Shown one piece after another: positions 9,041 to 32,881 of a stretch of 64,000 nucleotides of DNA. Below the pieces are notes generated by a model, which saw only the letters and a list, made by a program, of their open reading frames with translations, did not search any database and was not told the origin of the DNA. How positions within the stretch are numbered: position 1 is the first letter of the stretch; each line of letters opens with the position of its first letter. Origin of the DNA: Actinomycetes bacterium (GTDB lineage Bacteria > Actinomycetota > Acidimicrobiia > Acidimicrobiales > Bog-793); NCBI GenBank assembly GCA_021838945.1, contig JAKCCH010000002.1:6441-70440 (forward strand). The letters are read 5' to 3'. The position numbers and the translations under genes are program-made.

Positions 9041-10345
9041 CTATGCGCTCGTGGCGGCGGCGGGCCAGAACGTGGGGTTCGCAAACCCGGGCTCTCTGAA
9101 ATCCAACACCGCAGCCTGAGCCGCCGGTGTGGTCAGGTACTCCTGGAAGGAACGGGCACCTGGGGCGTTGACACCGGCCACGCGCTGCGGGTTCACGATG
9201 ATGCTCACCATGGTGCGCTGCAGGACGGGATCCGTCGTCACGAGCGGCTCGAGCTTTCCCTCGACCACTCCGAGCGACGCGCTCTCGTCGCCCCAGACGG
9301 TATAGGCACCGAGCCTGGCGGCCTCTTGCAGGAGAGCTGTCCCCACTGCAGTCGATCGGACGTACCACGCGCCCTGCTCCACCTTGGCGGCCGATACCAG
9401 CAGCTGGTCGAGGAAGTCGATCCTCACGTCGAGCGCGGCCGCGAGGAATTCGCTCCCGTGGCTCGCGATACGTCGGACCGCCTCGGTGCCGCTCGACAGG
9501 CCCCTCACGCCTGCGGGATCCGAGACCGGCCCGACGAGAACAGCCTGGTTCGCGAAGACGGCCATCGGCCAGAGGCCGTAGCCTTCGAGGACGAAGGCGC
9601 CGGTCGTCATGGTCCCCGAGCTCGCGCCGGCCGGGAAGGTCATGTTGCCCGGGAGCAGCGCTGCGCTCGCCACCGCGCCTGTGCCGAGGCCACCTCCACC
9701 CCCCGAGCCGTTCCCGTGACGATGGCCCTCGCCGCTTCCGGGGATCACCCCGGAGCCGGGACCGCCGCCGCCACCTGTGCCCCCACCCTCGCCACTCCCG
9801 GGAATGACGCTCGACGAGCTCCCGTGGCCTCCGCCGCCGGAGCCCGAACCCGAACGCCCGCCGGCGCCCGAGCCCCCGCCGGAGCCCGAGCCCGCGCCCC
9901 CGCCGGTGCCCGGTCCCTCTCCGCTTCCCGGGATCACTCCCTTGACCTTCGTGTGCGAACCGGTGCGGCCGGGATGCCGAGATGGCTGGCCGACGTGGAA
10001 GAAGTGGACGATCAGGAGATCGGCGTCGCCGTTGATCCCGGGCGTGAAGACGTCGTTCGTGGGCTGGAACTCCACGCGCAGCGCGGGGTTCACGGACTCG
10101 AACGACTGGGCGAGCATCGGCAGCAGCCCGCTCGAGTACGGGGTGTACACCGTCGCGACCCGGATCAGGTCGGGATGCTTCGCGGGCGAGATCTCGTCCG
10201 ACGCCGCGAGCTTCGCCCCAGGCGTGCTCGTGGGTGTGCAGGCAGCCCCGACGACAGCCGCCCCGCCGAGGGTGGCCAAGCCGAGGAAGGTGCGTCTCCC
10301 CAGCTGGCCCGGCTTCAGGCGTCCTTCGTCATCTCCTGCTGCCAC
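9041..10345 (-). CDS. Tat-signal lipoprotein, TupA-like tungstate/molybdate-binding protein with a large Gly-rich insertion
   Basis: GTG 10345 lies 8 nt after GAGGAG; the track start at 10351 is a TTG only 2 nt from the SD. A twin-arginine motif GRRTFLGLATLGGAAVVGAAC precedes the lipobox Cys. IRVATVYTPYSSGLLPMLAQSFE, DLLIVH and ANQAVLVGPVSDPAGVRG resemble TupA-type proteins as I recall them. Confidence 0.65.
   Translation of the reverse strand: MAAGDDEGRLKPGQLGRRTFLGLATLGGAAVVGAACTPTSTPGAKLAASDEISPAKHPDLIRVATVYTPYSSGLLPMLAQSFESVNPALRVEFQPTNDVFTPGINGDADLLIVHFFHVGQPSRHPGRTGSHTKVKGVIPGSGEGPGTGGGAGSGSGGGSGAGGRSGSGSGGGGHGSSSSVIPGSGEGGGTGGGGGPGSGVIPGSGEGHRHGNGSGGGGGLGTGAVASAALLPGNMTFPAGASSGTMTTGAFVLEGYGLWPMAVFANQAVLVGPVSDPAGVRGLSSGTEAVRRIASHGSEFLAAALDVRIDFLDQLLVSAAKVEQGAWYVRSTAVGTALLQEAARLGAYTVWGDESASLGVVEGKLEPLVTTDPVLQRTMVSIIVNPQRVAGVNAPGARSFQEYLTTPAAQAAVLDFREPGFANPTFWPAAATSA
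9677..9991 (-). repeat. Low-complexity Gly/Ser-rich coding insert with three VIPGSGEG anchor repeats
   Basis: The protein segment GQPSRHPGRTGSHTKVKGVIPGSGEGPGTGGG...SVIPGSGEGGGTGGGGGPGSGVIPGSGEGHRHGNGSGGGGGLGTG interrupts the binding-protein fold between DLLIVHFFHV and the PGNMTFPAG...FANQAVLVGP part. Confidence 0.8.
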
Positions 10346-15746: not shown

Positions 15747-17294
15747 TCAGTTGACAAGGCGATCACGGCCCTCCCAGTAGGCCTGGCGCAGCTTGAACTT
15801 CTGGAGCTTGCCCGTCGCCGTGCGTGGGAGCTCCGAGCGGAACTCCACTGATGTCGGGCACTTGAAGTGTGCGAGCACGCTGCGGCAGTGGTCGATCAAC
15901 TCGGCCTCGCGCACGTCTGCGTCCGGCCGGAGCACGACGAGTGCCTTCACCGTCTCGCCCCACCTCTCGTCCGGAACGCCGATCACCGCGGCCTCGGCTA
16001 CCGCCGGATGCCGGTACAGCGCATCCTCCACCTCGATCGAGGACACGTTCTCTCCCCCGGTGATGATGACGTCCTTCTTGCGGTCCGCGATGACGGTGTA
16101 GGCGCCGTCGAGGTGCCCCCCGTCGCCGGTGTGGAACCAACCGTCCACCAACACCTTCGCGCTCTCTTCGGGCTGCTGCCAATACCCCGCGAACACGTGG
16201 TTCGAGCGGGCGAGCACTTCCTCCTCCTCGTCGACGTCCATCCGAACGCCGATCGCCGGGACTCCGGCGCGCCCGAGCAGGACCGAGCGCTCGGTCGAGT
16301 CGAGGTCGTCCCACTCGGCGGGCGCGCGGTTGATCGTGAGGAGCGGGGCGGTCTCCGTGAGGCCGTAGATCTGGATGAATTCCCATCCGAGCTCCATTTC
16401 GACGCGCTCGATCACCCGGCTCGGCGGCGGCGCGCCGGCGACGACGATCCGCACATGGTGCGCGCCCGGGACCGCTTCGCCGCGCTCGCGGCGCGCCTCC
16501 GCCGCGCTCAAGATCGCAGCGACGACGGCGGGAGCACCGCACATGAGGGTCACACCCTCACGCTCGACGCGGCGCAGGATCTCCTCCCCGTCGACCTTGC
16601 GGAGCACGACGTGACGGGCACCCATGCCTGTCGCGGCATACGGCATTCCCCAGCCGTTGCAGTGGAACATCGGCAGTGTGTGGAGGAGCACGTCGCGGTC
16701 CGTCACCGTTGTGTGCCAACCGAAGGCCATGGCGTTGAGGGTGCAGTTGCGGTGCGTGAGCTCGACGCCCTTCGGCCGCGCCGTTGTGCCGGAGGTGTAA
16801 TTGATCGAGCACGTCGCCGCCTCGTCGGGCTCCCAGCCGAGCGGTGACCTCCCGGGAGCGATCTCGGCGAACACGTCACGATCAGCCTCTCCGTCGAGGA
16901 CGATCCGGTGACCCGCCTTCACCGAAGACAGCTGCTCGTCCACCTCCGGGTCGACGAGCAGCACCTCGGCTCCGGAGTGTTCGACGATGTACGCCACCTC
17001 GGTCTCGTTGAGCCGGAAGTTGATCGGCACGAGGATCCGGCCCGACCCGCTCACGCCGAAGTAGGCCACGAGGAACCGCGCGGAGTTGGGGCTGACGATG
17101 CCGACGCGGGCACCGACCGGCAGGCCGAGGTCGTCGAGGAAGGCTGCCATGCCGTCGGCGCGCGCAGCGAGCTCGCGATACGTAACCGAACCGAGACCCG
17201 CCACCGCTCCCGGCTCGTCGACGACTGCCACGCGGTCGGGGTAGACGAGCGCTGCACGTTCGATGAAGTCCGAGACGGTGAGAGGGACGTGCAT
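15747..17294 (-). CDS. AMP-dependent acyl-CoA synthetase/ligase (FadD-like)
   Basis: AMP-binding motif [20 protein letters not shown], then GWFHTGDGG and C-terminal [14 protein letters not shown]. 515 aa. Confidence 0.85.
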
Positions 17295-17342
17295 GCCGTC
17301 TGCTTACCACCGTGAAGGAGCGTTCGGTAGGGTTACGAAGTC

Positions 17343-21538: not shown

Positions 21539-22218
21539 CGGGAGAGCCGGTGCAGTCGGGCCCGGGCGCGGGAACGGACGCAGGGGCGGCACTTGAGCCC
21601 GCCCCGCTCGTCGCCCATGGCCTGTGCCTGCACCTCGGCGGGCGCCAGCTCATCGACGGGATCGACCTCGTCGTCGAACCGGGAGAGCTGGTGGGGATCC
21701 TCGGTCCGTCCGGGGCGGGGAAGACGTCGCTTCTCATGGTGCTCGCCGGTGTGCTCAAGCCCGATGCCGGATCCGTGTCCCGCACCGGGAGGCTCGGGTT
21801 CGTGCCCCAGACGCTCGGCCTCTCGCCCACGTCGACGGCGTCGGAGAACGTCGCTTTGACCCTGCAGGTGCACCGGACCGAGAAGGCCGAGATGCAACGG
21901 CGCGTGCGGGCATCGCTCGCGGCGGTCGGGCTGGCACAGCACGACCGGATCGTGGCGGAGCTGTCAGGTGGGCAGCGTGCCCGCGTGGCGATCGCCCGGG
22001 CCGTGGCCCTGCAGCCGCAGGTGCTCATCGCTGACGAGGCGACGGCCGAGCTCGACGTCGAGAATCAGAGGATCGTGATGGATTTGTTCGAGCAGGCGGC
22101 CGACGCCGGCGCTGCCGTCGTCCTCGCGACGCACGATCCGCTCGTGGCGGAACGCTGCACGCGGACATACCTGCTCGACGACGGCCACCTCATCGAGGGT
22201 GGCACGCTCGACCAGTAG
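21535..22218 (+). CDS. ABC ATPase 2 (second, different nucleotide-binding subunit)
   Basis: ATGA overlap at 21535-21538. Motifs: Walker A GPSGAGKTS, Q-loop GFVPQT, signature LSGGQRARVAIARA, Walker B LIADEATAELD, H-loop LATHD. Confidence 0.8.
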   Translation: MTGEPVQSGPGAGTDAGAALEPAPLVAHGLCLHLGGRQLIDGIDLVVEPGELVGILGPSGAGKTSLLMVLAGVLKPDAGSVSRTGRLGFVPQTLGLSPTSTASENVALTLQVHRTEKAEMQRRVRASLAAVGLAQHDRIVAELSGGQRARVAIARAVALQPQVLIADEATAELDVENQRIVMDLFEQAADAGAAVVLATHDPLVAERCTRTYLLDDGHLIEGGTLDQ

Positions 22219-22259
22219 CGCGCGCCACCGCGTTTTCGGGAAACCTGCGGTAGTCGTGG

Positions 22260-22320
22260 GGTAAGGGCGCAGGAGTCGTCCGGTAGGTACTCCGGTAGGT
22301 CCCCATGGTTCGCTGTCGCG
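22260..22320 (+). promoter_or_regulatory. Upstream element GGTAAG-N6-GGAGTC-N16-GGTAGG-N21-GTG, shared with the relaxase gene
   Basis: GGTAAGGGCGCAGGAGTCGTCCGGTAGGTACTCCGGTAGGTCCCCATGGTTCGCTGTCGCG, then GTG at 22321. An ungapped alignment to the minus-strand sequence 26388..26328 gives 37/61 identities. All four blocks sit at identical distances from the start codon. It contains a 12-nt tandem TCCGGTAGGTAC/TCCGGTAGGTCC (22279-22302). Confidence 0.55.
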
Positions 22321-23763
22321 GTGGATCCGCTCGACGAACTGCGGGCTGCAACGGCCCTGTACGGCTATGGATTGCGCATCGGTTGTCCGTCCGGCGACGG
22401 TGCCCCCGATATCTTCGTGGACCCCGAGCGGTCCCTCCTCGCCATCGGTCCGCCCCGCTCGGGCAAGACCTCCGCCCTCGTAGTGCCGAACGTGCTCGCC
22501 GCCTGTGGTCCCGTCGTGACCACTTCGACCAAGCCTGACGTCGTCCTCATCACATCCCCCGCCCGCTCCCGCGTCGGCCGCTGCATGCTCTTCGACCCCG
22601 GCGGCAGCACTCGAGACGTCCCCGGAGTGGAAAGGATCTCCTGGTCACCGCTGTCGACTGCGATCGAGTTCCACGGAGCCGAGCTCATGGCACGGACCAT
22701 GGTGGAAGCGGCCCGACCCGGTGCAAGACAGGGTGAGTCGACCCACTGGCTGGAACGGGCCGAGACGCTCCTCGCGCCGGCCTTCCACGCTGCCGCGATC
22801 GACGGGATGCCCATGTCACGCTTGCTGTCGGCCATCGACCGTCGCCAGGGCGAGGACTTCCGCGCCATCCTCGCCCGGCACGACCGTGAGGTCCCGCTCT
22901 CGAGCCTCGACGGGATCCTCGCAACCGAGGACCGCGAGCAGAGCGGCATCTGGTCGACGGGATCCTCGATCCTCTCCGCCTACCGGTCCGAGCGGGCACT
23001 CGAGAGCACCGCCGGCCGGACGGTCGACTTCGAGGAGCTCGTGCGGAGTGGCGACACCTTGTACATCTGCTCGCCATCCGAAGAGCAACGCCGCGCCGCG
23101 CCCATCGTCTGCGGCCTCCTGCGCGACGTCCGCGCAGCGGCATACGACGCGTCTGCCGCCGGCGAGCTCGGGGCCGCGAACCGGCGGCCGCCCCTGTTGT
23201 TGCTCCTCGACGAGGTGGCGAACATCGCGCCGCTACACGACCTGCCCGATCTCGTAGCGACAGGCGGGAGCCAGGGCGTCGTGACGCTGGCCTGTCTGCA
23301 GGACCTCTCGCAAGCGGTGGAGAGGTGGGGGCGGATCGGCGAGGGTTTCTTGGGGATGTTCAACGCGAAGGTGATCTTCCCCGGCGTCGGGTGCGTCCGG
23401 ACGCTCGAGGAGGTCTCCCGCCTCGCCGGCGAGCACGAGGTCACGACGGTGTCGACGAGCGAAGGGCACCGCCTGCCCGGTCTGGCGGGCGCTCTCGGCA
23501 GACGGACGCCACCGGCCAGGACGTGGTCGACCCGGCGCGAAAGGGTCCTCCCAGTCGAGCACGTCGCACAAGGATGGCCGGGTCACGTCGTCTGCCTTGA
23601 AGGCGCCCGCCCTTCGCTCGTCGAGGCACGCCCGTGGTTCCAGGTCCCACGGCTGGCGCGTGTCGTCGAGCAGTCGCGGACACCGGAACGGAGCTACATC
23701 GAGAGTCCCCGGCCGCCGATCTCACGCGCGGAGCGGGCGGGCTCACGCCCTCTCGGCCGCTGA
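22321..23763 (+). CDS. VirD4/TraD/TraG-family coupling-protein-like ATPase lacking transmembrane segments
   Basis: Walker A IGPPRSGKTSALVVPN, Walker B PPLLLLLDEVANIAP, then TLACLQDLSQAVERWG, as in type IV coupling proteins (T4CPs; TraG-D_C-like). There is no hydrophobic N-terminal helix. GTG start. Confidence 0.7.
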   Translation: MDPLDELRAATALYGYGLRIGCPSGDGAPDIFVDPERSLLAIGPPRSGKTSALVVPNVLAACGPVVTTSTKPDVVLITSPARSRVGRCMLFDPGGSTRDVPGVERISWSPLSTAIEFHGAELMARTMVEAARPGARQGESTHWLERAETLLAPAFHAAAIDGMPMSRLLSAIDRRQGEDFRAILARHDREVPLSSLDGILATEDREQSGIWSTGSSILSAYRSERALESTAGRTVDFEELVRSGDTLYICSPSEEQRRAAPIVCGLLRDVRAAAYDASAAGELGAANRRPPLLLLLDEVANIAPLHDLPDLVATGGSQGVVTLACLQDLSQAVERWGRIGEGFLGMFNAKVIFPGVGCVRTLEEVSRLAGEHEVTTVSTSEGHRLPGLAGALGRRTPPARTWSTRRERVLPVEHVAQGWPGHVVCLEGARPSLVEARPWFQVPRLARVVEQSRTPERSYIESPRPPISRAERAGSRPLGR

Positions 23764-26327
23764 GGGTCGTGTGCAATTCCTGATCGGGCGATCTCGATCT
23801 CGGCGCGGATCTCGCTCATCCGGCGCCGCAGCGACCGCGCTCCCACATCGGCGTCACGACCGAAGGCCGAGGCCTCGGCGGTGATGCCGCAGCTCTCGCG
23901 GTAGGACTCGAGCAGCCCGGCGCCAAGGCGCCACAACCGGCGGGCTTCCGGCTCGCGTTGCACGGGCCCGAGCTCGGCCACGAGGTGCGGCGCCCGCACA
24001 ACCTCGGCAGCGCGGGCGAGAGCCCCCATGGGGTCTCTCGTCGCTCCTACGGCAACGACGACGTGAGTCCGCTCGAGCTCGGCCAGCCGTGTCGCGCTCA
24101 TGGAGAGAGGGGCCGTCCCGCCGATCACGACGACGGCTGGTGGCCGGTGATCGAACCTGCCTCGGTCCCGGTGCGAGCTCGCAAGGCGGGCGGAGACCTT
24201 GCTCGCCGGGAGGACCATGAGCGAACCGGGTTCCCGTGCATGAGCCCGCGGGTCCGGGGTGGGCACGCCGGCCGGCACACCGACTACCGGTTGCTTCGCC
24301 GCCAGCGCGGCCTCGACGTGCGCGACGAGGGAGTGGTCCGGCAGGACGAGCAGCGCGTCGCGTCCCTGCTCCTGCTGCTCGATGGCGTGGCGCATGGCGG
24401 CAGCGCACGCCGCTTCGAGATCCGGAGCGAGCTCGACCGACAGGTTCGGACCGAGTGAGCGCGGTGCAGCTGGCTCGAGGGAGGGGGCGGTGCCGGCAGT
24501 GGTAGCCGCGAGTCGTTCGGGCTCGGGTCGCCAACCGTCGATCGATGCGATCCGGGGTGCCTCGGCCTGCACGACCTCGAGCATGCGGGCCGCCTCGAGC
24601 GCGTGCTCGGCGGCGAGCAGCACGGGCTGTGCACCGCGGAGCCGGCATGCCGTCATGACATCTGCCACTTCCGCCTCCAACATCGAAGCGCAGTCCGCCA
24701 GGACGACCACGTCGCCACGACCGAGATGTGGCACGACTGACCTCGCCTCCCTCACCGGGAAGGACTCGACTCCGGTCGACGCCTCGAAGCGCGCGGCTGC
24801 CGCCGGGCCGACCGCAAGGGCGACGACCCGACGTTCGCCTGGTGCGGCTGCGCCGCCTGGGCCGTTCGCACCACTCGGGTCACCGGTGATGCCTCCCTCG
24901 ATCCCAGGCGGCCGTCCCGCCAGTCGAACGACCGCAGCCAGTGCGCCGGCGCGTCCGAGGGGTCCTGCTGCGTCGTAGGTGAGCACGCTCGCGGCAGTCT
25001 CCCGAGCGAGTGAGCCGAGCCGGGAGGCCGACTCCTGCAGCAGCTCCTGCTGCGCGACCGTCGTGTAGCGGTCGCCGTCTGCCTGGAGCACGTCCGGACG
25101 GGCGAGAGCTCGGTCGACAGCGATGACGGCCGCGCCGATGCTGATGCCTTCGGAGAGCGATGCACAGCGTGCGATCAACAGGTCGTGACGAGTGAAGGTC
25201 CCGTCACCGCGGCCGGCGGCCGCGCCGAGCCACTCGAGGTCGCCCTCCGCTCCCGGATGCTGCACCTCCGGCACCGGCGCGGTCCTCTGCACAGCCGGCG
25301 CAGCCGGCGCGTCGCGGCGCTCGATGTGCGCCGCGTCCGCCTCGGGCGCCGTGCTGGCCCCGCCTGCGGCCAACAGGTGCAGCGCCGGCTCGAGACCGGC
25401 CGCTCGATCGAGGCGGCTCTGCGACAGACCGCAACGGTGGGCGAGCTCGCGCCACTCCTCCTGAAGCTGCTGGTACGGGCGGGACCGATCCTTCTCCGGG
25501 CGGATCTGCCTCGCGATGGCCGCCGCCTCCTCCGGCCCTTCGAGCCCGGCAGCCGCCATGTGGAGCCCGATGAGCTCGCTCTGGCGGGAGAAACGACGAA
25601 TCGTTCCGACATCGATCCCCACCACGTCCGCAAAGTCGCGCCTCATCGGACCGAAGCGCATGCCGATCGCCGTCAACTCCTTCCGCAGGTGCGCCTCAAA
25701 CAGCACCTTCGCGACACGTTGGCTCCGGTAGATGCGGCGGCTGTCGAGGGATCTCCACCGGTCGTCCACCCCACACGCCACGTTCGCGATGACGAGGTGG
25801 GTGTGAAGGTGCGGGTCGTTCGCCCTGCTCGTCCTGTGCGGGAAGGCGACGCCGACAGCACCCCGCGTCCCGAGGAGCTCGCGGCGCCCGCCCGGCCGTT
25901 CGCCGCGCAACCCGGCCGGGACGACGGCACGCCGCCCCGTCCGGAGCACCTCGTCCTCGAGGAACCGGAGAGTCGCCACCACGGCTGCCTCCTTCGCGGC
26001 GCCGATGCGGTCGGAGGCCTCAGGGCTCGCCAGCGCGTGCAGCAGCGACACGGACTTCGGTGTGGACAGGACGACGTCGAAAGCAGCGATCGTGCGACGC
26101 GACTGCCACTGAGGAGACAGCGTCTCGCCCGAGGTCGGGTCGATGCCGTGGAGGAGCCGCCGGACCTCTTCGAGGATCGGACTGCCGCGCAGGCCGAGCT
26201 CGAGTGCACCTTGCCCGATCCAGTACGGGTCGGGCTCGATCAGCCCGTCGGGGAGGTCTGTCGTGGCCCTCAGGGTCGAGAAGTAGTAGCCCTCGCCCCC
26301 GGGCCTGATGGGTGAGACCTTGAGCAT
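23694..26327 (-). CDS. MOBF (TrwC/TraA-type) relaxase with a degenerate C-terminal helicase-like region
   Basis: ATG at 26327. The N-terminus MLKVSPIRPGGEGYYFS has paired Tyr residues. The His triad is FPHRTSRANDPHLHTHLVIAN. The rest aligns loosely with RecD-like/AAA_30 parts, but there is no GK[ST] anywhere. The best P-loop remnant is AAGPLGRAG and the best Walker B remnant is VVVLADCASM. Confidence 0.75.
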   Translation of the reverse strand: MLKVSPIRPGGEGYYFSTLRATTDLPDGLIEPDPYWIGQGALELGLRGSPILEEVRRLLHGIDPTSGETLSPQWQSRRTIAAFDVVLSTPKSVSLLHALASPEASDRIGAAKEAAVVATLRFLEDEVLRTGRRAVVPAGLRGERPGGRRELLGTRGAVGVAFPHRTSRANDPHLHTHLVIANVACGVDDRWRSLDSRRIYRSQRVAKVLFEAHLRKELTAIGMRFGPMRRDFADVVGIDVGTIRRFSRQSELIGLHMAAAGLEGPEEAAAIARQIRPEKDRSRPYQQLQEEWRELAHRCGLSQSRLDRAAGLEPALHLLAAGGASTAPEADAAHIERRDAPAAPAVQRTAPVPEVQHPGAEGDLEWLGAAAGRGDGTFTRHDLLIARCASLSEGISIGAAVIAVDRALARPDVLQADGDRYTTVAQQELLQESASRLGSLARETAASVLTYDAAGPLGRAGALAAVVRLAGRPPGIEGGITGDPSGANGPGGAAAPGERRVVALAVGPAAAARFEASTGVESFPVREARSVVPHLGRGDVVVLADCASMLEAEVADVMTACRLRGAQPVLLAAEHALEAARMLEVVQAEAPRIASIDGWRPEPERLAATTAGTAPSLEPAAPRSLGPNLSVELAPDLEAACAAAMRHAIEQQEQGRDALLVLPDHSLVAHVEAALAAKQPVVGVPAGVPTPDPRAHAREPGSLMVLPASKVSARLASSHRDRGRFDHRPPAVVVIGGTAPLSMSATRLAELERTHVVVAVGATRDPMGALARAAEVVRAPHLVAELGPVQREPEARRLWRLGAGLLESYRESCGITAEASAFGRDADVGARSLRRRMSEIRAEIEIARSGIAHDPQRPRGREPARSAREIGGRGLSM

Positions 26328-26388
26328 GGCATCACGCTGCCAAACGCCCTTACCGTTGGATCTCCCGGAGGACTCCCGCTTGCTTACC
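26328..26388 (-). promoter_or_regulatory. Upstream element GGTAAG-N6-GGAGTC-N16-GGTAAG-N21-ATG, partner of 22260-22320
   Basis: The minus strand reads GGTAAGCAAGCGGGAGTCCTCCGGGAGATCCAACGGTAAGGGCGTTTGGCAGCGTGATGCC, then ATG. The first 24 nt are 19/24 identical to 22260-22283. Confidence 0.55.
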
Positions 26389-26406
26389 GGCCTTTCCGAT
26401 GCGCTC

Positions 26407-28503
26407 TCACCTCGGTGCGGCTGAGTTGCCGTCCTCGTACCGCCGTAGCGCCCGACGAGCCGCCCGCGCCGCGATCTCCACGAGCTCGGGTGGTGACAGC
26501 ACCTCTGCGCCGGGACCGAGGCGGAGCATCAGCCATCCGAACCAGCCCTCGGCATCACCGACGAGGATGTCGGTGGCGAGGCGTCCGTCGCCGAGCGGCT
26601 CGATCGCCGAAGCGGCGTACTGCTCGACCCCGAGGGCGGACTCCGGTGCGAAGGCGATCCGCGCCCGCACTGAGTCCGGCCCGCCGACGAACGCTTCCGG
26701 CCCGGTGAGCGATTCGTCGAGCTCGGCCGGCGGCTCGAAGTGCTCCCCCGTGCCGCTCACTGCCCGGATGCGGTCGACCTGGAAGCGCCGTTGATCGTCG
26801 ACGAGATGGCACCATCCGTCGAGGTACCAACGCCCCTCGCGGAGCACGACCTGGTACGGGTCCACCTGGCGGCGGGTCGGCTCGGTCGCAGCGCTCGAGA
26901 AGTACTCGATCTCGACGCGCTCGCGACGCTCGACCGCCTGTTGCAGCACGCGGAGGAAGGCCGGCTGCTCGACGTCGACGGAGAGACGCGCCTGCCCGAG
27001 CACGGCCTCCAACTTCGCGAGCGCTGAACGCAGCGCCCCTTCCTCGTCCGCACCGGCGACCTCCGTCAGAGCCTTGGCAGCCGCCGCGAGCGCGAAGCCC
27101 TCCTCCGGCGTGAGGCGCCGGGGTCTGGCGAGATGCCCCAGCCCGAACGCCGAGACGTGGTCACCGTCGACGATGAGCTCGATCAGCTGATCAGGCGTGT
27201 AGGGCGGCACTCCGCAACATGCGGCCAGCTCGAGGTCGTGGACGAGCTCGGCCTCGTCCATGTCGAAACGCTGCGCGATCTCGCCGATCCCCGCCTCCCC
27301 CACTCTCGCAAGGTGGACGAGGACGGCAAGCAAGCGGCGGAGCCGCTCTCCCGCCACCAGCCCTTGTGCGGGTGTGCGGCGGCGACGTGCGCCCGGGATC
27401 CTGCCCCCGGGAGAGCCGCCAGATGAAGCGCCCGAGGAATTGTGGTGGGGCGCGCCAGCTGCCATCGGCTCTCTTGCGAGGCCGTCCTTGTCAACCCGAG
27501 CATCCTTGCCCCTGGGGCGGCGCCCTTCTCGTGGAGATCGGGATGAGGGACGACCGCCCGACTCGGCTGCCTCGACCAGGTGCTCGACGACGAGCGCACG
27601 AAGTCGCTCCGGACCGAGAACGACCGCAGTGTCCCCGAGGCCCGAGACCCACGAGACGAAGGCTCGCTCGTCGGCGATCGGGAGGCGCAACCGCACCGAA
27701 CCCTCGGCCTGCCACTCGGCGATCGCGCTCGCCGGGACGAGGGACGCCACGTGGCGTGCCATGCGGGCGTCGACCACGACCTCGGCCACCGGGAGGTCCT
27801 GCGAGCCGGATGAGCCGAAGGGGAGCAGTTGGATCTCCGAACGCAGGTCGAGATCGGCCGGAGGTGAGAACGCGCCCGATTCCCCGAGCTCTGGCCGCGT
27901 CTCGAGGCGATCCACCCGGAACGTCCGCATCGCACCGCCTTCGCCCACCGTGCGGTCCTTCGCGACGAGGTACCAGGCGGCCTGGCGGAAGGTGAGCCCA
28001 TATGGCTCCACCTCCCGTTCCCGACCGCGGTAGCGGAACCTGAGGAGTGCGTTGCGCCGGAGCGCCTCGTGCACGGGCCCGAGCGCAGGCACGGACGGGA
28101 GGACCGCGACAGGTGCCTCGAGCCGTGGACCTGTTCCGTGGCCGAGGGCCGAGAGCGCGTCCCGCCCGGCGTTGCCGCCGAGCTGCACCGCCGCCACCGC
28201 GAACGCCAACGCCTGCGCCTCCGCCTCGTTGAGGTCGAGGTCCGGCAGGTAGTAGTCCTCGGGTCGCACGACGTAGCCGACCTGCTCCTCCGCGTTGATC
28301 GGCACACTCGTGATCGGGATGCCGAGATCGCGAAGCGCCCGCTTGTCGCGCTCGAAGGCCTGGCGGGCGGTCTCCTTGCCCCCGGGGTAGCCCTCGACCC
28401 GAGCCGCGATCTCGCGGAGGGAGAGCGGCTGCTCCGCGTCGAGCAACACGAGCATCAGGTTCGTGAGCCGTTCGAGACGGTCGGGGCGCGGCTCAAAGGC
28501 CAT
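26407..28503 (-). CDS. pafBC: Fused double HTH-WYL-WCX regulator (PafB-PafC fusion-like)
   Basis: 698 aa in two tandem units. Unit 1 has a wHTH (RLERLTNLMLVLLDAEQPLSLREIAARV) and a WYL domain (RFRYRGREREVEPYGLTFRQAAWYLVAKD). Unit 2 follows a basic/Gly-rich linker and has LRRLLAVLVHLARVGEAGIGEIAQRF and EIEYFSSAATEPTRRQVDPYQVVLREGRWYLDGWCH. Confidence 0.75.
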   Translation of the reverse strand: MAFEPRPDRLERLTNLMLVLLDAEQPLSLREIAARVEGYPGGKETARQAFERDKRALRDLGIPITSVPINAEEQVGYVVRPEDYYLPDLDLNEAEAQALAFAVAAVQLGGNAGRDALSALGHGTGPRLEAPVAVLPSVPALGPVHEALRRNALLRFRYRGREREVEPYGLTFRQAAWYLVAKDRTVGEGGAMRTFRVDRLETRPELGESGAFSPPADLDLRSEIQLLPFGSSGSQDLPVAEVVVDARMARHVASLVPASAIAEWQAEGSVRLRLPIADERAFVSWVSGLGDTAVVLGPERLRALVVEHLVEAAESGGRPSSRSPREGRRPRGKDARVDKDGLAREPMAAGAPHHNSSGASSGGSPGGRIPGARRRRTPAQGLVAGERLRRLLAVLVHLARVGEAGIGEIAQRFDMDEAELVHDLELAACCGVPPYTPDQLIELIVDGDHVSAFGLGHLARPRRLTPEEGFALAAAAKALTEVAGADEEGALRSALAKLEAVLGQARLSVDVEQPAFLRVLQQAVERRERVEIEYFSSAATEPTRRQVDPYQVVLREGRWYLDGWCHLVDDQRRFQVDRIRAVSGTGEHFEPPAELDESLTGPEAFVGGPDSVRARIAFAPESALGVEQYAASAIEPLGDGRLATDILVGDAEGWFGWLMLRLGPGAEVLSPPELVEIAARAARRALRRYEDGNSAAPR

Positions 28504-28525
28504 GCCGCCGATGGTAGGTGCCGTC

Positions 28526-29152
28526 TCAGATGCCGAAGTTCGACTTCTCCACCGCAGCGACTGCGTCAGCGGGACCGTCCAGCTCCACCTTGGCGACCGA
28601 CTGCCGCCCGAACAGGTACAAGGTGAGCTCCTGGGGGCTTGCGGTCATGGTGACCTTCGGGGCTCCCGGGCGAGCCGTGATCGAGCCGTACCCCGGTGCC
28701 ACGAGCTCGAGGCCGGCCCCACGCACCCGTCGCGCGAGCAGTCGTGCACCACGGCGGAGCCTTGCCCACAGGGCGTCATCGAGCTGCTTGTCCTCCCGGG
28801 ACCCCGGGTTCTCGTCGCCGGCACGGCGGACATCTTCATGGTGCACGAAGTACTCGGCGGTGTTCACCTGCTCGTCGAGCAGCTTGAAAGGGAGGGGCGG
28901 ACCGGATCGGACGCGGCGGATGAGGCCTTCGTAGCCGTAGGTCCGTTTCGCCGAGTCCATGGCCGACTGCGTCAGGCCGGCAAGCGGGCGCACCACCATG
29001 CCGGCGCCCGCCCACGGTCTTGACTCACGAACGAAGAGGTGGGCGGCCAGGTCAGAGGTGACCCACCCTTCGCAGAGGGTCGGCGCGAGCGGTCCCTTGT
29101 CCTCGAGAAGGGAGCAGAGCGCCTGGCGTTCTGACTGCGCCACGCTGGTCAT
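28526..29152 (-). CDS. DinB/YfiT-like protein (mycothiol-dependent maleylpyruvate-isomerase N-terminal domain family)
   Basis: In-frame ATG 29152 (MTSVAQSERQALCSLLEDKG...). CEGWVTSDLAAHL and FVHHEDVRRA are typical of the actinobacterial DinB-like families. The 25-codon upstream extension is Arg/Gly-rich. Confidence 0.65.
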   Translation of the reverse strand: MTSVAQSERQALCSLLEDKGPLAPTLCEGWVTSDLAAHLFVRESRPWAGAGMVVRPLAGLTQSAMDSAKRTYGYEGLIRRVRSGPPLPFKLLDEQVNTAEYFVHHEDVRRAGDENPGSREDKQLDDALWARLRRGARLLARRVRGAGLELVAPGYGSITARPGAPKVTMTASPQELTLYLFGRQSVAKVELDGPADAVAAVEKSNFGI

Positions 29153-29237
29153 GACTTGCACGGTACCGCCGGCGGTGCCGTCGCGTGGCCCACCCGGCCG
29201 GCGGCCGCGGCGGCGCCGCAGCCGCATCGGCGCCGGC

Positions 29238-29765
29238 TCAGCCCCGGCCCGCCAGCACCCCTCGCTCGTGGGCGAGCAGCTGCTCCTTCAGCGCGATCCC
29301 GCCTCCGAAGCCGACGAGCTTCCCGTTCGAGCCGATCACGCGGTGACACGGGAGCACGATCGGGAGCGGGTTGCGTGCGTTCGTCGCCCCGACGGCGCGG
29401 AACGCCGTCGGGTGGCCGACTCTCGCCGCCACCTGCCCGTACGTTGACGTCTCGCCGTAGGGGATCTGACCGAGCGCGAACCACACCGAGCGCTGGAACG
29501 GCGTCCCGCGCGGATCGAGGGGCAGCTCGAACTGCAGCCTCTCGCCGGCGAAGTACTCCTTCATCTGCTGCTCCGCCTCTGCCACGGCGCCCGGGCGTCC
29601 TTCCCGCTCGTCCTCGAGCGTCTCGCGCACCTCCTCGGTCGCGTTCGGCAGCAAGACGTGATGCAGCTCATCCTCACTTCCTGCCAGCAGCATCTCGCCA
29701 TACGGCGTGTCGACGACCCACCACTCGTCACCCTCCACCATCCATGATGTCGTGTCCCTGCTCAT
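29238..29765 (-). CDS. ogt: Methylated-DNA-protein-cysteine methyltransferase
   Basis: ATG 29765 overlaps the upstream stop (ATGA). The active site is IVLPCHRVIG. The DNA-binding part is FQRSVWFALGQIPYGETSTYGQVA. 175 aa. Confidence 0.9.
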   Translation of the reverse strand: MSRDTTSWMVEGDEWWVVDTPYGEMLLAGSEDELHHVLLPNATEEVRETLEDEREGRPGAVAEAEQQMKEYFAGERLQFELPLDPRGTPFQRSVWFALGQIPYGETSTYGQVAARVGHPTAFRAVGATNARNPLPIVLPCHRVIGSNGKLVGFGGGIALKEQLLAHERGVLAGRG

Positions 29766-31339
29766 GCCACGTTCTCCTCGTCTCTCTCGGCCCTCGTCGC
29801 CTGCGTCATCTGCTCGAGGGGACCTCGCGCAGCGCCGTCCCCGGCACTGCCGAGCGCTCCCGACCACACGTACTGGAGGGCGTAGGCCCGATACGGCCGC
29901 CACCGCTCGCCCATGGCGGTGGCAGAACGCTCGTCGCCGGGCAGACCGGCGCGCTCGAGGGCGCGCCGAACACCGAGGTCGCTCGGCAGGTATGCGTCCG
30001 GATCCGCCAGCGCCCGCATCCTCACGTACGCGATGGTCCACCGACCGATCCCGGGAAGCTCGAGGAGCCGGGCGCACGCCTCCTCGCGGTCTGCACCAGG
30101 ATCCAACCTCACCTTCCCGAACGCGAGCGCATCCGCGAGCCCGATCAACGCCTTGGCGCGGCTCACCGGCATCGGGAGGTCGGCAGGTGACAGGGAGGCG
30201 ATGGTCTCGGGGGACGGGAAGGTCCGCTCGATCCCGAGTCCTTCGGGCAACCGTGACCGGATCGAATCCGGGAGCGGTGCTCCGTACCGGGAGGCGAGCC
30301 GTCCCGCCAGCGTCCTCGCACCGGCGACGCTGACCTGCTGGCCGAGAACGGCGCGCACGGCCAGCTCGTCGCCGTCGACGTGGCCGGGGACTCGCAAGCC
30401 GGGGCGCCCCGACACCGCCCTCGCCAGGATCGGGTCGCTCGCCAGCACCTCGGCGACTGCCGACGGGTCGGAGTCGAGGTCGAAGAGCTGCCGCAGCCGC
30501 TTGACGGCGCTGTTCAGGTCCCGCAAGTCCTCGAGCCACAGAGTGGCGCGACACCAGGTCTCGCCGTCGACGGGCGCTCGCACGTCCGCCACCCCCGCAC
30601 CGTTCGGCAGGCGCAACGACCGGCTGTAGCGCGATTCGTCTCCCGCTTCGACGCCCGGCACGGCCCGCGCCGAGAGGAACCCCCACAGCTGCGCGCCGGC
30701 GAGCGGTGGGCGGAATGCGAGACGAAGGGTCACGGCGCCGCCAGAGCCCGGGGCGAGCCCGACCGCAGCTCCCGGCCGCCGCGCCGCACGGGCCCGCAAG
30801 GCGGTCGGCGTCTCGGCGAAGACGGCGAGCACCGTGTCGTTGAACTGGCGCACGCTCCCGAACCCGGCCGCGAAGGCGATCTCGGCCGCGCGCAACGACG
30901 TGGTCTCGAGGAGGATCCGCGCAAGTTGGGCGCGCTGCGCTCGCGCCAGCTCGAGCGGGCCGGCTCCGACTTCGGCGACCAGGAGTCGCCCCAGCTGCCT
31001 CGCGCTGTATCCGAGACGCGCGGCGAGCCCCGACACGCCCTCGCGGTCGACGACCCCGTCGGAGATGTACCGCATCGCCCGGCCGACGACGTCACCTCGC
31101 CGGTTCCACTCAGGCGACCCGGGCGCAGCGTCGGGCCTGCACCGCTTGCACGCTCGGAAGCCGGAACGCTGCGCTGCCGCGGCGGTCGGGAAGAAACGCA
31201 CCCGGTCCCGCCTCGGCACGACGGACGCGCAGCTCGGCCGGCAGTAGATGCCTGTCGAGGTCACTGCCACGAAGAACCACCCGTCGAAACGGGCGTCACG
31301 GCTCTGCACCGCCCGGTAGCGGAGATCATCCTCGTGCAT
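29762..31339 (-). CDS. alkA: Ada-AlkA fusion: Ada N-terminal Zn methyl-acceptor domain, AraC HTH and DNA-3-methyladenine glycosylase II
   Basis: ATG 31339 (MHEDDLRYRAVQSRDARFDGWFF); the alternative start is ATG 31390. Zn ligands: YCRPSC...ACKRC. AraC HTH: AAEIAFAAGFGSVRQFNDTV. HhH-GPD part: LLELPGIGRWTIAYVRMRAL. The gene order with ogt is the same as in the mycobacterial alkA-ogt pair. Confidence 0.85.
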   Translation of the reverse strand: MHEDDLRYRAVQSRDARFDGWFFVAVTSTGIYCRPSCASVVPRRDRVRFFPTAAAAQRSGFRACKRCRPDAAPGSPEWNRRGDVVGRAMRYISDGVVDREGVSGLAARLGYSARQLGRLLVAEVGAGPLELARAQRAQLARILLETTSLRAAEIAFAAGFGSVRQFNDTVLAVFAETPTALRARAARRPGAAVGLAPGSGGAVTLRLAFRPPLAGAQLWGFLSARAVPGVEAGDESRYSRSLRLPNGAGVADVRAPVDGETWCRATLWLEDLRDLNSAVKRLRQLFDLDSDPSAVAEVLASDPILARAVSGRPGLRVPGHVDGDELAVRAVLGQQVSVAGARTLAGRLASRYGAPLPDSIRSRLPEGLGIERTFPSPETIASLSPADLPMPVSRAKALIGLADALAFGKVRLDPGADREEACARLLELPGIGRWTIAYVRMRALADPDAYLPSDLGVRRALERAGLPGDERSATAMGERWRPYRAYALQYVWSGALGSAGDGAARGPLEQMTQATRAERDEENVA

Positions 31340-31465
31340 GCGAGCCAGTATCCCAGCAGGGTGCGCGCCCGTCTGGCGGAAATCGGACATGCACGTGGGT
31401 GGCGGCGTGCGTGACGGCGAGCTCGACCTTTTCGAGGCGATCTGGGACGCGCGAGATTTACGGCC

Positions 31466-32881
31466 ATGCCCCTGCACCGAAACGCCCCGAGTCACGCCGA
31501 AGAGCCGCTCAGCGTCCGGCCACAGTTCGCCGGGAACCTCGACCGCGAGATCCCGCGACACGCCCTGCCGGCGAGGTCGATGCCAGCCTCCACCGCCTAC
31601 CAGATCGTCCACGACGAGCTGATGCTCGACGGGAACGCCCGGCTCAACCTCGCAACGTTCGTCACCACGTGGATGGAGCCCGAGGCCGGCAGGCTCATGG
31701 CGGAGTGCGCCGAGAAGAACATGATCGACAAGGACGAGTATCCCCAGACCGCCGAGCTCGAGCGACGGTGCGTGAACATCCTGGCGCGGCTCTGGCACGC
31801 CGACGGTGACGGCGACGCAACCGGCTGCTCCACCACCGGATCGAGCGAGGCGTGCATGCTCGGCGGTCTCGCGCTCAAGTGGCGCTGGAGAAAGGCGCGG
31901 CAGGCAGCCGGCCTCGCCTCGGACCGGCCGAACCTCGTCATGGGAGCGAACGTCCAGGTCTGTTGGGAGAAGTTCTGCCGCTACTGGGACGTCGAACCCC
32001 GCCTCGTGCCCGTCGGGCCGGACGTGGCGCACCTCACCGCGGACAAGGCGGTCGAGCGCTGCGACGAGAACACCATCGGCGTCGTCGCCGTCCTCGGGAG
32101 CACCTACGACGGCGCCTACGAGCCGGTGCAGGAGATCTGCGCAGCGCTCGACCGGCTCGCCGCCTCGGGTGGCCCGGACGTCCCGGTGCACGTCGACGGC
32201 GCGAGCGGCGCCATGGTGGCACCCTTCATCGACGCTGATCTCGACTGGGACTTCCGCCTGCCGAGAGTGCAGTCGATCAACACCTCCGGCCACAAGTACG
32301 GCCTCGTCTACCCAGGGGTCGGCTGGATCGTCTGGCGTGAGACGGCCGCGCTGCCCGAGGAGCTCGTGTTCAGGGTCGACTACCTCGGCGGCGAGATGCC
32401 GACGTTCGCCCTGAACTTCTCACGGCCCGGAGCCCAGGTCGCCGCCCAGTACTTCAACTTCCTCCGTCTCGGGGAGGCGGGGTACCGCGAAGTCCAGCAG
32501 GCGTGCCGGGAGACTGCGTCGTGGCTCGGCGACGAGATCTCGGCGATGCCCGAATACGCGCTCGTGTCCGGTGGGCGTGGGATTCCGGTGTTCGCGTTTC
32601 GGACGGTCGGCACGGCCTTCAGCGTCTACGACGTCTCAGACGCGCTGCGAGCGAAGGGATGGCTCGTCCCGGCCTACCCCATGCCGACCGGGATGGAGGA
32701 CGTGTCGGTGCTCCGCATCGTCGTGAGGAACGGCTTCTCACGCGACCTCGCCCACCTTTTCCTCCGGGACCTGCACGCCGTCACTGATCGCTTGACGGGG
32801 ACATCGGGCGGCGCCGGCACAGGCGGTTCCCTTGGACCGGCCGACGCCGCCCAGAGGGAGCGGACGGCGTTCCACCACTGA
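31466..32881 (+). CDS. gadB: Glutamate decarboxylase (PLP-dependent)
   Basis: YQIVHDELMLDGNARLNLATFVTTWMEPEA, NMIDKDEYPQTAELE, and the PLP lysine motif NTSGHKYGLVYPGVGW. Confidence 0.9.
   Translation: MPLHRNAPSHAEEPLSVRPQFAGNLDREIPRHALPARSMPASTAYQIVHDELMLDGNARLNLATFVTTWMEPEAGRLMAECAEKNMIDKDEYPQTAELERRCVNILARLWHADGDGDATGCSTTGSSEACMLGGLALKWRWRKARQAAGLASDRPNLVMGANVQVCWEKFCRYWDVEPRLVPVGPDVAHLTADKAVERCDENTIGVVAVLGSTYDGAYEPVQEICAALDRLAASGGPDVPVHVDGASGAMVAPFIDADLDWDFRLPRVQSINTSGHKYGLVYPGVGWIVWRETAALPEELVFRVDYLGGEMPTFALNFSRPGAQVAAQYFNFLRLGEAGYREVQQACRETASWLGDEISAMPEYALVSGGRGIPVFAFRTVGTAFSVYDVSDALRAKGWLVPAYPMPTGMEDVSVLRIVVRNGFSRDLAHLFLRDLHAVTDRLTGTSGGAGTGGSLGPADAAQRERTAFHH

Follow-up and report, generated by a model that had tools for sequence, protein, structure and literature searches.

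The closest described counterparts of the promoters reported here are those of the mycobacterial activator PafBC, which follow the consensus tGTCgg(N10)tA(N3)T, with the activator element at -28 to -23 and no -35 element (PMC8635444). The helix-turn-helix (HTH) of PafB reads the two guanines of the GTC triplet through R46 and R50, the HTH of PafC contacts region 4 of the sigma factor (PMC8635444), and the mycobacterial protein does not bind promoter DNA without RNA polymerase (RNAP) holoenzyme and single-stranded DNA (ssDNA) (PMC11804915). Sigma adaptation of the PafBC type has so far been characterised in mycobacteria only, and motif comparisons have covered the class Actinomycetes, without Acidimicrobiia (PMC8635444). 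SiwR, a WYL protein of M. smegmatis that activates the DinB-like genes next to it, responds to genotoxic stress (PMC10693628). Here we describe arrays of a short box, GG(T/G)A(G/A)G, upstream of two convergent genes, trwC and t4cp, which encode a TrwC-like relaxase and an ATPase resembling type IV coupling proteins (T4CPs) and lie beside a gene for a fused PafB-PafC. The DNA analysed, called the window throughout, is a stretch of 64,000 nt (70% G+C) at positions 6,441-70,440 on the forward strand of contig JAKCCH010000002.1 (GCA_021838945.1; Acidimicrobiia, Acidimicrobiales, Bog-793). The source is an Acidimicrobiales-like metagenome-assembled genome (MAG) of an uncultured organism, with housekeeping genes on the flanks of the locus.

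The two upstream regions are the 61-nt strings at 22260-22320 (plus strand), followed by GTG at 22321, and at 26388-26328 (minus strand), followed by ATG at 26327. Anchored on these start codons and compared without gaps, they agree at 37 of 61 positions and at 19 of the first 24, as the first-pass annotation of this DNA had counted. The likeness is concentrated between -61 and -22 (28/40) and is at background level farther upstream and inside the genes; the identity sits in boxes, and the spacers differ. Among 2,000,000 random pairs of 61-mers drawn from the window, the mean identity is 17.7 (standard deviation 3.8) and two pairs reach 37 or more. The likeness is unlikely to be chance, even with a correction for about 10^3 gene pairs. 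A search of the window for the exact pattern returned two matches with none expected; the pattern had been derived from these same two genes, which makes the search circular, and we do not count it as evidence.

The earlier parse divided the common sequence into three blocks, GGTAAG, GGAGTC and GGTARG. That the two regions share blocks at fixed spacing stands, but the blocks are better taken as four phased copies of the single hexamer GG(T/G)A(G/A)G, spaced 11, 11 and 12 nt apart as in the orthologues L003 and L005. Moved by 1 nt, the GGAGTC block reads GGGAGT or AGGAGT, which is this hexamer again in a degenerate version; the box missed in the three-block parse is box 3 (GGTAGG at 22282-22287; GGGAGA at 26366-26361). 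In both genes, 21 nt lie between the end of the last, proximal copy and the start codon. Numbered from the start codons, the elements are as follows.

22249-22254, plus strand: candidate fifth, most distal t4cp box, GGTAGT, in phase with the array and 11 nt farther upstream than box 1; read from the window sequence
22260-22265, plus strand: t4cp box 1, GGTAAG (-61 to -56); L003 t4cp has this box as well
22271-22276, plus strand: t4cp box 2, AGGAGT (-50 to -45), placed by lattice alignment; L003 has GGTAGA and L005 GGTACC at this place
22282-22287, plus strand: t4cp box 3, GGTAGG (-39 to -34), placed by lattice alignment
22294-22299, plus strand: t4cp box 4, the proximal box, GGTAGG (-27 to -22), 9 nt before the -10-like hexamer; proposed -26-type activator element
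22309-22314, plus strand: t4cp -10-like hexamer, TTCGCT (-12 to -7), weak, with no A at -11; assigned from its position
26334-26339, minus strand: trwC -10-like hexamer, CAGCGT (-12 to -7), preceded by TG at -15/-14; placed by lattice alignment
26349-26354, minus strand: trwC box 4, the proximal box, GGTAAG (-27 to -22), placed by lattice alignment
26361-26366, minus strand: trwC box 3, GGGAGA (-39 to -34), placed by lattice alignment
26372-26377, minus strand: trwC box 2, GGGAGT (-50 to -45); L003 has GGTAGC and L005 GGTAAC at this place
26383-26388, minus strand: trwC box 1, GGTAAG (-61 to -56), placed by lattice alignment

The boxes recur far beyond this genome. We took about 20 non-redundant, diverged Acidimicrobiia genomes and compared what lies upstream of both genes; the TrwC proteins compared are 31-40% identical, a distance at which non-coding DNA is otherwise unalignable. 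The strict box GGTA[AG][GC] was counted between -80 and -1 upstream of both genes and of two control families.

trwC: 22 upstream regions, 22 boxes, 0.89 expected
t4cp: 21 upstream regions, 22 boxes, 0.85 expected
pafBC (control): 18 upstream regions, 4 boxes, 0.73 expected
DinB-like/mdmpi (control): 10 upstream regions, 0 boxes, 0.41 expected

The strict box is about 25-fold enriched upstream of both the trwC and the t4cp families, and the distance from the end of a box to the start codon falls on a lattice of 21, 33, 44 or 55 nt. Over 26 promoters the proximal box at -27 to -22 has the composition G24 G26 T20 A15 G18 G19, with position -24 degenerate (A15/C5/G3/T3); the column of box 3 reads G21, G18/T8, T16/G9, A24, G17, G22; and the hexamer at -12 to -7 has T at -12 in 20/26 and A at -11 in 20/26, its other positions being unconserved. 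Arrays hold four or five phased copies in clade A. In clade B, trwC is preceded by GGTAGG-N6-GGTYGG-N9-TAGCCA-N6-GTG and t4cp by a single GGTAGG-N9-TAGGAC-N6-GTG/ATG; in clade C, trwC has GGTAGG-N21-TACCGT-N7/8-GTG. The -10 hexamers of clade B t4cp are TAGGAC, TAAGAC or TACGAC, and those of the trwC orthologues CAGCTT, AACCGT, GACGCT, TAGCCA or TAGCGT, with TACCGT in clade C, which was aligned separately. An A at -11 is found in all in-register trwC promoters, the L006 and L009 rows needing a 1-nt shift. The full geometry followed by a long open reading frame (ORF) occurs 13 times in 461 kb of related sequence, and 9 of the 13 matches are trwC or t4cp. Within one genome, the ungapped likeness of the trwC and t4cp upstream regions is 29/61 in L003 and, in L006 and L009, 22/61, near background. 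The cis-regulatory architecture common to trwC and t4cp is real, and we are highly confident that the arrays are a functional promoter element common to both genes. The earlier proposal of one promoter or operator type for the pair, with probable co-regulation, is borne out by the roughly 25-fold enrichment, the exact distances to the start codons and the near-exclusive geometry in the 461 kb.

Several other repeats accompany these genes. Some clades carry, in high-GC DNA, AT-rich elements instead of GGTAGG boxes: phased (C)ATGAAA direct repeats upstream of trwC (L013, L015, L019, L053, L062, L088, L211) and GAAA..TTTTTC elements upstream of t4cp (L044, L058, L071, L074, L210). Three of these genomes (L013, L015, L019) combine a GG-type t4cp with an AT-type trwC and L210 shows the reverse, a mixing of motif types within one genome that suggests a second regulatory input. 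In clade B t4cp (L014, L016, L018, L020, L021) a conserved (A/G)TGATGTCG stands directly upstream of the single GGTAGG, at -41 to -33; in L014 and L016 this element contains TGTCGG, the canonical mycobacterial PafBC hexamer, yet here it is 17 nt away from the -10. An actinomycete MAG that is not related to these genomes (L052) has, at 9242-9336, a tandem array of 7.3 copies of a 13-nt unit, GTCTGCACGGTAG, with GGTAGG spanning the junction of units. The array is found about 650 nt upstream of a MOBF relaxase gene of the ordinary kind and may be an iteron or associated with an origin of transfer (oriT). The remaining GGTARG sites of the window have other identities. Those at 17303 and 17326 look to be -10 regions, not activator boxes, and belong to a divergent pair of leaderless genes: the 48-nt intergenic region 17295-17342, between an AMP-ligase gene (15747-17294, minus strand) and an FtsX/ABC operon (from 17343, plus strand), holds GGTAAG and GGTAGG at 8-11 nt from the two start codons, and they resemble the -10s TAAGCA and TAGGGT. 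At 28513 the match is to the pafBC -10 read as its reverse complement, likewise not an activator box.

The region 22000-28700 contains no match to a sigma-70 -35/-10 pair and no intrinsic terminator, including between pafBC and trwC, and read-through from pafBC into trwC is possible. Neither leader in the window has a Shine-Dalgarno sequence, and no Rfam match was found at E<=1. From a -10 placed only 6-8 nt before the start codon, the absence of a Shine-Dalgarno sequence, and distances from promoter to start that are exact across distant genomes, we infer that the trwC and t4cp promoters are leaderless, with transcription starting at the start codon. Identical spacing from box to start would then be expected, because the geometry of the promoter fixes the start codon as +1. 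A '-10, N7, ATG' layout is also found for pafBC and ada at the same loci. The -10-like hexamer is good in clades B and C (TAGCCA, TACCGT, TAGGAC) and weak in the window (CAGCGT, TTCGCT), and because the window -10s are weak and no -35 match exists, an activator is probably required. The pafBC promoter itself has a canonical leaderless form (TACCAT, TACGAT or TAGATT, N7, ATG; L020, L022, L016, L027, L036). In several clades GGTAGG or GGTAGA occurs 18-22 nt upstream of the pafBC -10, which hints at autoregulation; the window pafBC has no such box. The ada-alkA promoter is conserved as well, with a GCGCA (Ada-box-like) element and GATACT-N7-ATG.

Based on these features, we propose that each of the two genes has its own activator-dependent, -35-less promoter that yields a leaderless mRNA. 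Transcription would start at or within one base of the GTG or ATG. The promoter would consist of the weak -10-like hexamer at -12 to -7 and the GG(T/G)A(G/A)G box at -27 to -22, 9 nt upstream of it, with, in this genome, three or four further copies (at -39, -50 and -61) phased by 11-12 nt on one face of the helix. The boxes would most likely be read by the adjoining fused PafBC, acting as an activator and not as a repressor. By analogy with mycobacterial sigma adaptation, ssDNA arising from DNA damage may activate PafBC, which would insert between sigma-A region 4 and the DNA so that the PafB HTH reads the -26 element. We hold this account as a whole with about even confidence; for the identification of PafBC as the reader and DNA damage as the signal, taken separately, we likewise judge the evidence to be evenly balanced.

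The candidate reader is the WYL protein encoded next to trwC, which the first-pass annotation had named as the obvious binder. It is a fused PafB-PafC, with Pfam domains HTH_PafC, two WYL and two WCX. In a PDB sequence search the whole protein matches A. aurescens PafBC (6sj9) at 1.8e-47, the N-terminal half M. smegmatis PafB at 4e-18 and the C-terminal half PafC at 8e-25 (7p5x/9fnd), and homologues carry the PafB annotation at JGI and NCBI. pafBC is the only transcription factor gene that always adjoins trwC. The nomination was a reasonable one, given the PafB-PafC fusion, its constant adjacency, and the position of the proximal box where the PafBC and SiwR activators bind (PMC8635444, PMC10693628). 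In an alignment against the residues described in PMC8635444, the backbone contacts are conserved (K5, here Arg; R8, K52, R56 and Y76), the acidic PafC residue D62 that contacts sigma region 4 is replaced by Glu (LIELIV) with its acidic character kept, and, of the residues by which the WYL domain binds ssDNA, the R181 equivalent (in REVEP) persists, as does the W-Y-L motif (in AWYLV). PafBC is the best candidate reader because of these conserved contact residues and its invariant adjacency.

Of the two base-reading arginines, one has changed. The PafB reading helix is RQAFERDK here and SRMFERDK in mycobacteria: R50 is kept, the base-reading R46 is replaced by Gln, and an Arg stands at position 45 (ARQAFERDK). 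This helix is found in all but two of about 45 Acidimicrobiia homologues, the exceptions being L083 (RRAFERDK) and L072 (RQAFEKDK). On the DNA side, GGTAGG or GGTCGG at -27 to -22 has G2, T3, G5 and G6 of the canonical PafBC hexamer, and the proximal box of clade B trwC does read GGTCGG; the GTC triplet as such is not kept, with G in 26/26, T in 20/26 and A15/C5/G3/T3 at the third position. Position -24 corresponds to the C of GTC, the guanine opposite which is read by an Arg. The loss of R46 and the degenerate box position -24 are mutually consistent, a link that we can only suggest, as the structure paper (PMC8635444) is silent on which Arg reads which guanine.

The canonical TGTCGG-N10-TAnnnT has no match in 1.36 Mb of loci, and the window holds two one-mismatch matches against 4.7 expected. 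Neither the window nor any of the loci gave a tblastn match to RecA, LexA, RuvB or UvrA, and the DNA-damage genes recognised by Pfam in the window are ada-alkA and ogt only. A scan of metagenomes for recA promoters with the strict pattern (box-N9-TA...DREKAL codons) gave none; a relaxed pattern gave at least 120 matches, and among the matches listed two are real recA genes, neither of them on the lattice. The refutation proposed earlier, failure of the WYL protein to bind either fragment when examined by electrophoretic mobility shift assay, is not valid with the protein alone, because mycobacterial PafBC needs RNAP holoenzyme and ssDNA (PMC11804915).

Several observations weigh against PafBC acting at these promoters in the manner proposed. 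The best box of the clade B and C trwC promoters lies a helical turn farther upstream, at -39 to -34 (N21), not at -26. The spacing from box to -10 is N9, not the canonical N10, and the four or five phased boxes are left unexplained, mycobacterial PafBC having a single element and one DNA-reading HTH. The PafB wing residue W70 is absent, and the PafB helix is invariant across clades with AT-rich promoter repeats, so that helix and motif do not co-vary. The window t4cp -10 (TTCGCT) is without the key A at -11. Finally, the P-values of the box enrichment disregard phylogenetic relatedness and so overstate independence.

Set against known promoters, the arrays most resemble the PafBC and SiwR type of sigma adaptation. 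Like the mycobacterial PafBC ('RecA-NDp') promoters, they have no -35 match and a G/T-rich hexamer one turn upstream of what may be a SigA-type -10 (PMC8635444, PMC11804915), at -27 to -22 here against the published -28 to -23, and as GGTAGG/GGTCGG against tGTCgg. The regulator, too, is the same in kind, two HTH-WYL-WCX modules in a natural fusion like those of Arthrobacter, Kocuria and Thermobifida (PMC6789036). The differences are A or any base in place of the invariant C, N9 in place of N10, two to five phased copies in place of one, transcripts that would be leaderless, and Gln for R46; moreover, the targets are relaxase-like and T4CP-like instead of classical repair genes, and the regulator does not stand beside pafA or proteasome genes, an association that is typical but not strictly defining. 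With SiwR the arrays share a -26 region, in which the GGA triplet of SiwR (PMC10693628) compares with the GGGAGN boxes here, and a DinB/MDMPI-like gene (TIGR03085) adjoins pafBC at this locus as well. SiwR differs in binding as a homodimer to a 19-bp imperfect palindrome with no need for a ligand (PMC10693628), whereas here we find direct repeats and a PafB-PafC fusion. We keep the arrays apart from both because the GTC triplet and R46 are missing and spacing and copy number differ. The architecture is probably a new, diverged form of the PafBC-type promoter.

The most serious rival is a tandem-repeat activator of another family. Sites of the SARP and OmpR families are direct repeats 11-12 nt apart that lack a -35 and place the proximal repeat at 8-9 nt from the -10. 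The arrays share with SARP and OmpR/PhoB sites this phasing, the multiple direct repeats, the proximal distance and the replacement of the -35, and an OmpR/PhoB-, GlnR- or SARP-type winged-helix activator encoded elsewhere could bind them next to the -10, the adjacency of pafBC then reflecting shared biology. The four or five copies in clade A and the failure of the PafB helix to co-vary with motif type would both be accounted for. Yet no such regulator is conserved nearby, PafBC being the sole transcription factor that is always adjacent; clade B t4cp has a single box; the box resembles the GT..GG element of PafBC; and its degenerate position matches the change of R46 to Gln. To our knowledge, moreover, the repeat is unlike any described SARP, PhoP or GlnR box. 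We regard such an activator as unlikely, though it must be taken seriously.

A lesser rival would reverse the sign of regulation: the array might be a repressor operator, or an autoregulatory or relic oriT-like site, where either of the two gene products, TrwC-like or T4CP-like, or another repressor would bind and occlude the promoter until it is released. Autoregulation at oriT or close to it is common among relaxase operons, the boxes span all of -61 to -22, the 13-nt tandem array of L052 upstream of an ordinary MOBF relaxase gene contains GGTAG, and clade C trwC combines good -10s with a box only near -35. What makes this improbable in our view is the nucleotide-exact N9 or N21 to the -10 across clades, which points to contact with RNAP, together with the weak -10s and missing -35, which suggest a need for activation; nor is there an inverted repeat with a nic site as is typical of MOBF oriT. 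Such short inverted repeats as the two window copies contain are not common to both. More doubtful still is the parse put forward in the first-pass annotation, an alternative-sigma promoter GGAGTC-N16-GGTARG with the upstream GGTAAG as the half-site of a regulator. Spelled out, it would make GGAGTC the -35 and GGTARG the -10 of a promoter of the extracytoplasmic function (ECF) type, and the leader would be about 14 nt long. The 16-17 nt between boxes 2 and 4 is sigma-like, and GGTAAC in L005 resembles the GGAAC -35 of ECF promoters. GGAGTC, however, occurs in this genome only, its place in orthologues being taken by GGTAGC, GGTAAC, GGTAGA, GGTACC or GGGAGA. Box 4 is often GGGAGG, GGGAAG or GGGGGC, which is not -10-like, boxes 1 and 3 stay unaccounted for, and it would be unusual for a leader of 14 nt to lack a Shine-Dalgarno sequence. 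In clade B t4cp the one box lies 9 nt from a TAnGAC -10, a spacing unusable for any sigma -35/-10 pair, and we consider the parse very improbable. Chance likeness, or a recent local duplication of a functionless intergenic segment, is the least credible explanation of all. It could draw on the fact that the within-genome likeness is high only here, being 37/61 against the lower values in L003, L006 and L009, but the probability is about 1e-6 per pair, the identity lies in boxes between differing spacers, and the same boxes and lattice recur in genomes whose TrwC proteins are only 31-40% identical.

The genes that these promoters precede, and the regulator gene beside them, are the following.

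22321-23763, plus strand: T4CP-like ATPase gene (480 aa; Pfam TraG-D_C and T4SS-DNA_transf)
23694-26327, minus strand, start ATG 26327: TrwC-like gene (877 aa), with a MOBF relaxase domain and a RecD2-like fold without Walker A
26407-28503, minus strand: fused PafB-PafC gene (698 aa; two HTH-WYL-WCX modules, from Pfam and PDB sequence matches)

The TrwC-like protein scores 166 bits against the MobF model NF041492 (cut-off 100). The relaxase domain occupies its first 300 residues and its catalytic motifs are intact, with YY at 14-15 and the three-histidine motif HxDPHLHTH in HRTSRANDPHLHTH at 164-177; Foldseek gives a TM score of 0.85-0.89 to TrwC for the relaxase fold. The C-terminal part has a RecD2-type helicase fold (AlphaFold model pLDDT 77.7; Foldseek match 3gp8, E 1e-4). 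No Walker A was found in it, so that its RecD2-like character is kept in structure only, and in the model this 'dead helicase' recalls the helicase domain that is vestigial in F TraI. The T4CP-like protein has a P-loop of the TraG/VirD4 type, with Walker A at residue 43, scores far under the NCBIfam TraG/VirD4 cut-offs and has no sequence match in the PDB. No transmembrane segment is predicted in it (maximum KD19 hydrophobicity 1.39), and judged from its sequence it cannot be a membrane-anchored coupling protein. There is good support for both start codons: the MobF model aligns from residue 1 of the TrwC-like protein, which supports ATG 26327, while GTG 22321 is the first start possible within its ORF and the N-terminus (V/M)DPLD is kept in orthologues. 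The pair shares with TrwC-TrwB of R388 and TraI-TraD of F the relaxase fold and motifs and a TraG/VirD4-type P-loop ATPase, and with F TraI a RecD-like fold without an ATPase motif. It differs from conjugative pairs in being chromosomal, syntenic and vertically inherited across the class, with no type IV secretion system (T4SS), integrase, active helicase or T4CP anchor, and in that the genes are convergent and have separate promoters instead of forming one transfer operon. In sum, this looks like a domesticated pair, in which a MOBF relaxase, predicted to be catalytically intact, carries a RecD-like domain that is dead, and the T4CP-like motor is soluble.

In this genome the convergent ORFs overlap tail to tail by 70 nt (23694-23763); in related genomes 0.3-6 kb of unrelated genes separate them. 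The fused pafBC precedes trwC on one strand, with 79 nt from its stop codon to the trwC ATG. Directly upstream of pafBC is the TIGR03085/DinB-like (MDMPI_N) metal-binding gene (28526-29227, minus strand), preceded in turn by ogt and ada-alkA (29238-32293 in the window, minus strand). The order ada-alkA, ogt, DinB-like, pafBC, trwC-like, variable genes, t4cp-like (convergent) and ABC transporter is retained in related MAGs. The trio of pafB(C), trwC and t4cp occurs in dozens of Acidimicrobiia genomes (loci L003-L089, L210-L212) and was recovered whether loci were picked via TrwC or via PafB. It is a vertically inherited chromosomal module, not an integrative and conjugative element: no T4SS or integrase was found at the inspected loci. 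No pafA or proteasome genes were found within 9-10 kb on either side of pafBC in any inspected locus, and PADLOC returned no defence-system match for the TrwC-like or T4CP-like protein.

These observations suggest a damage-controlled gene pair, for a relaxase-like protein and a T4CP-like ATPase, that has not previously been described; our literature search found no description of a pafBC-trwC-t4cp module, nothing linking PafBC or WYL regulators with TrwC or relaxases, and nothing linking PafBC with Acidimicrobiia. In its broadest and most tentative form, which we would put forward only as a possibility on the doubtful side, our proposal is of a class-wide, vertically inherited damage module in which PafBC with Gln at position 46 reads phased GGTAGG boxes at leaderless, -35-less promoters and so switches on a domesticated conjugation pair. 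The box lattice provides a motif with which the regulon can be defined in complete Acidimicrobiia genomes. If PafBC is indeed the reader, these promoters would be a second natural specificity class of sigma adaptation and would offer a natural specificity swap, and their targets would amount to a new pathway of DNA processing, repair or DNA export built from conjugation parts. A relaxase and a T4CP-like ATPase have been kept beside a damage regulator across the class, even though the helicase motor, the membrane anchor, the T4SS and mobility were lost. This points to an unrecognised role for the chemistry of HUH relaxases in maintaining the chromosome or in DNA processing induced by stress.

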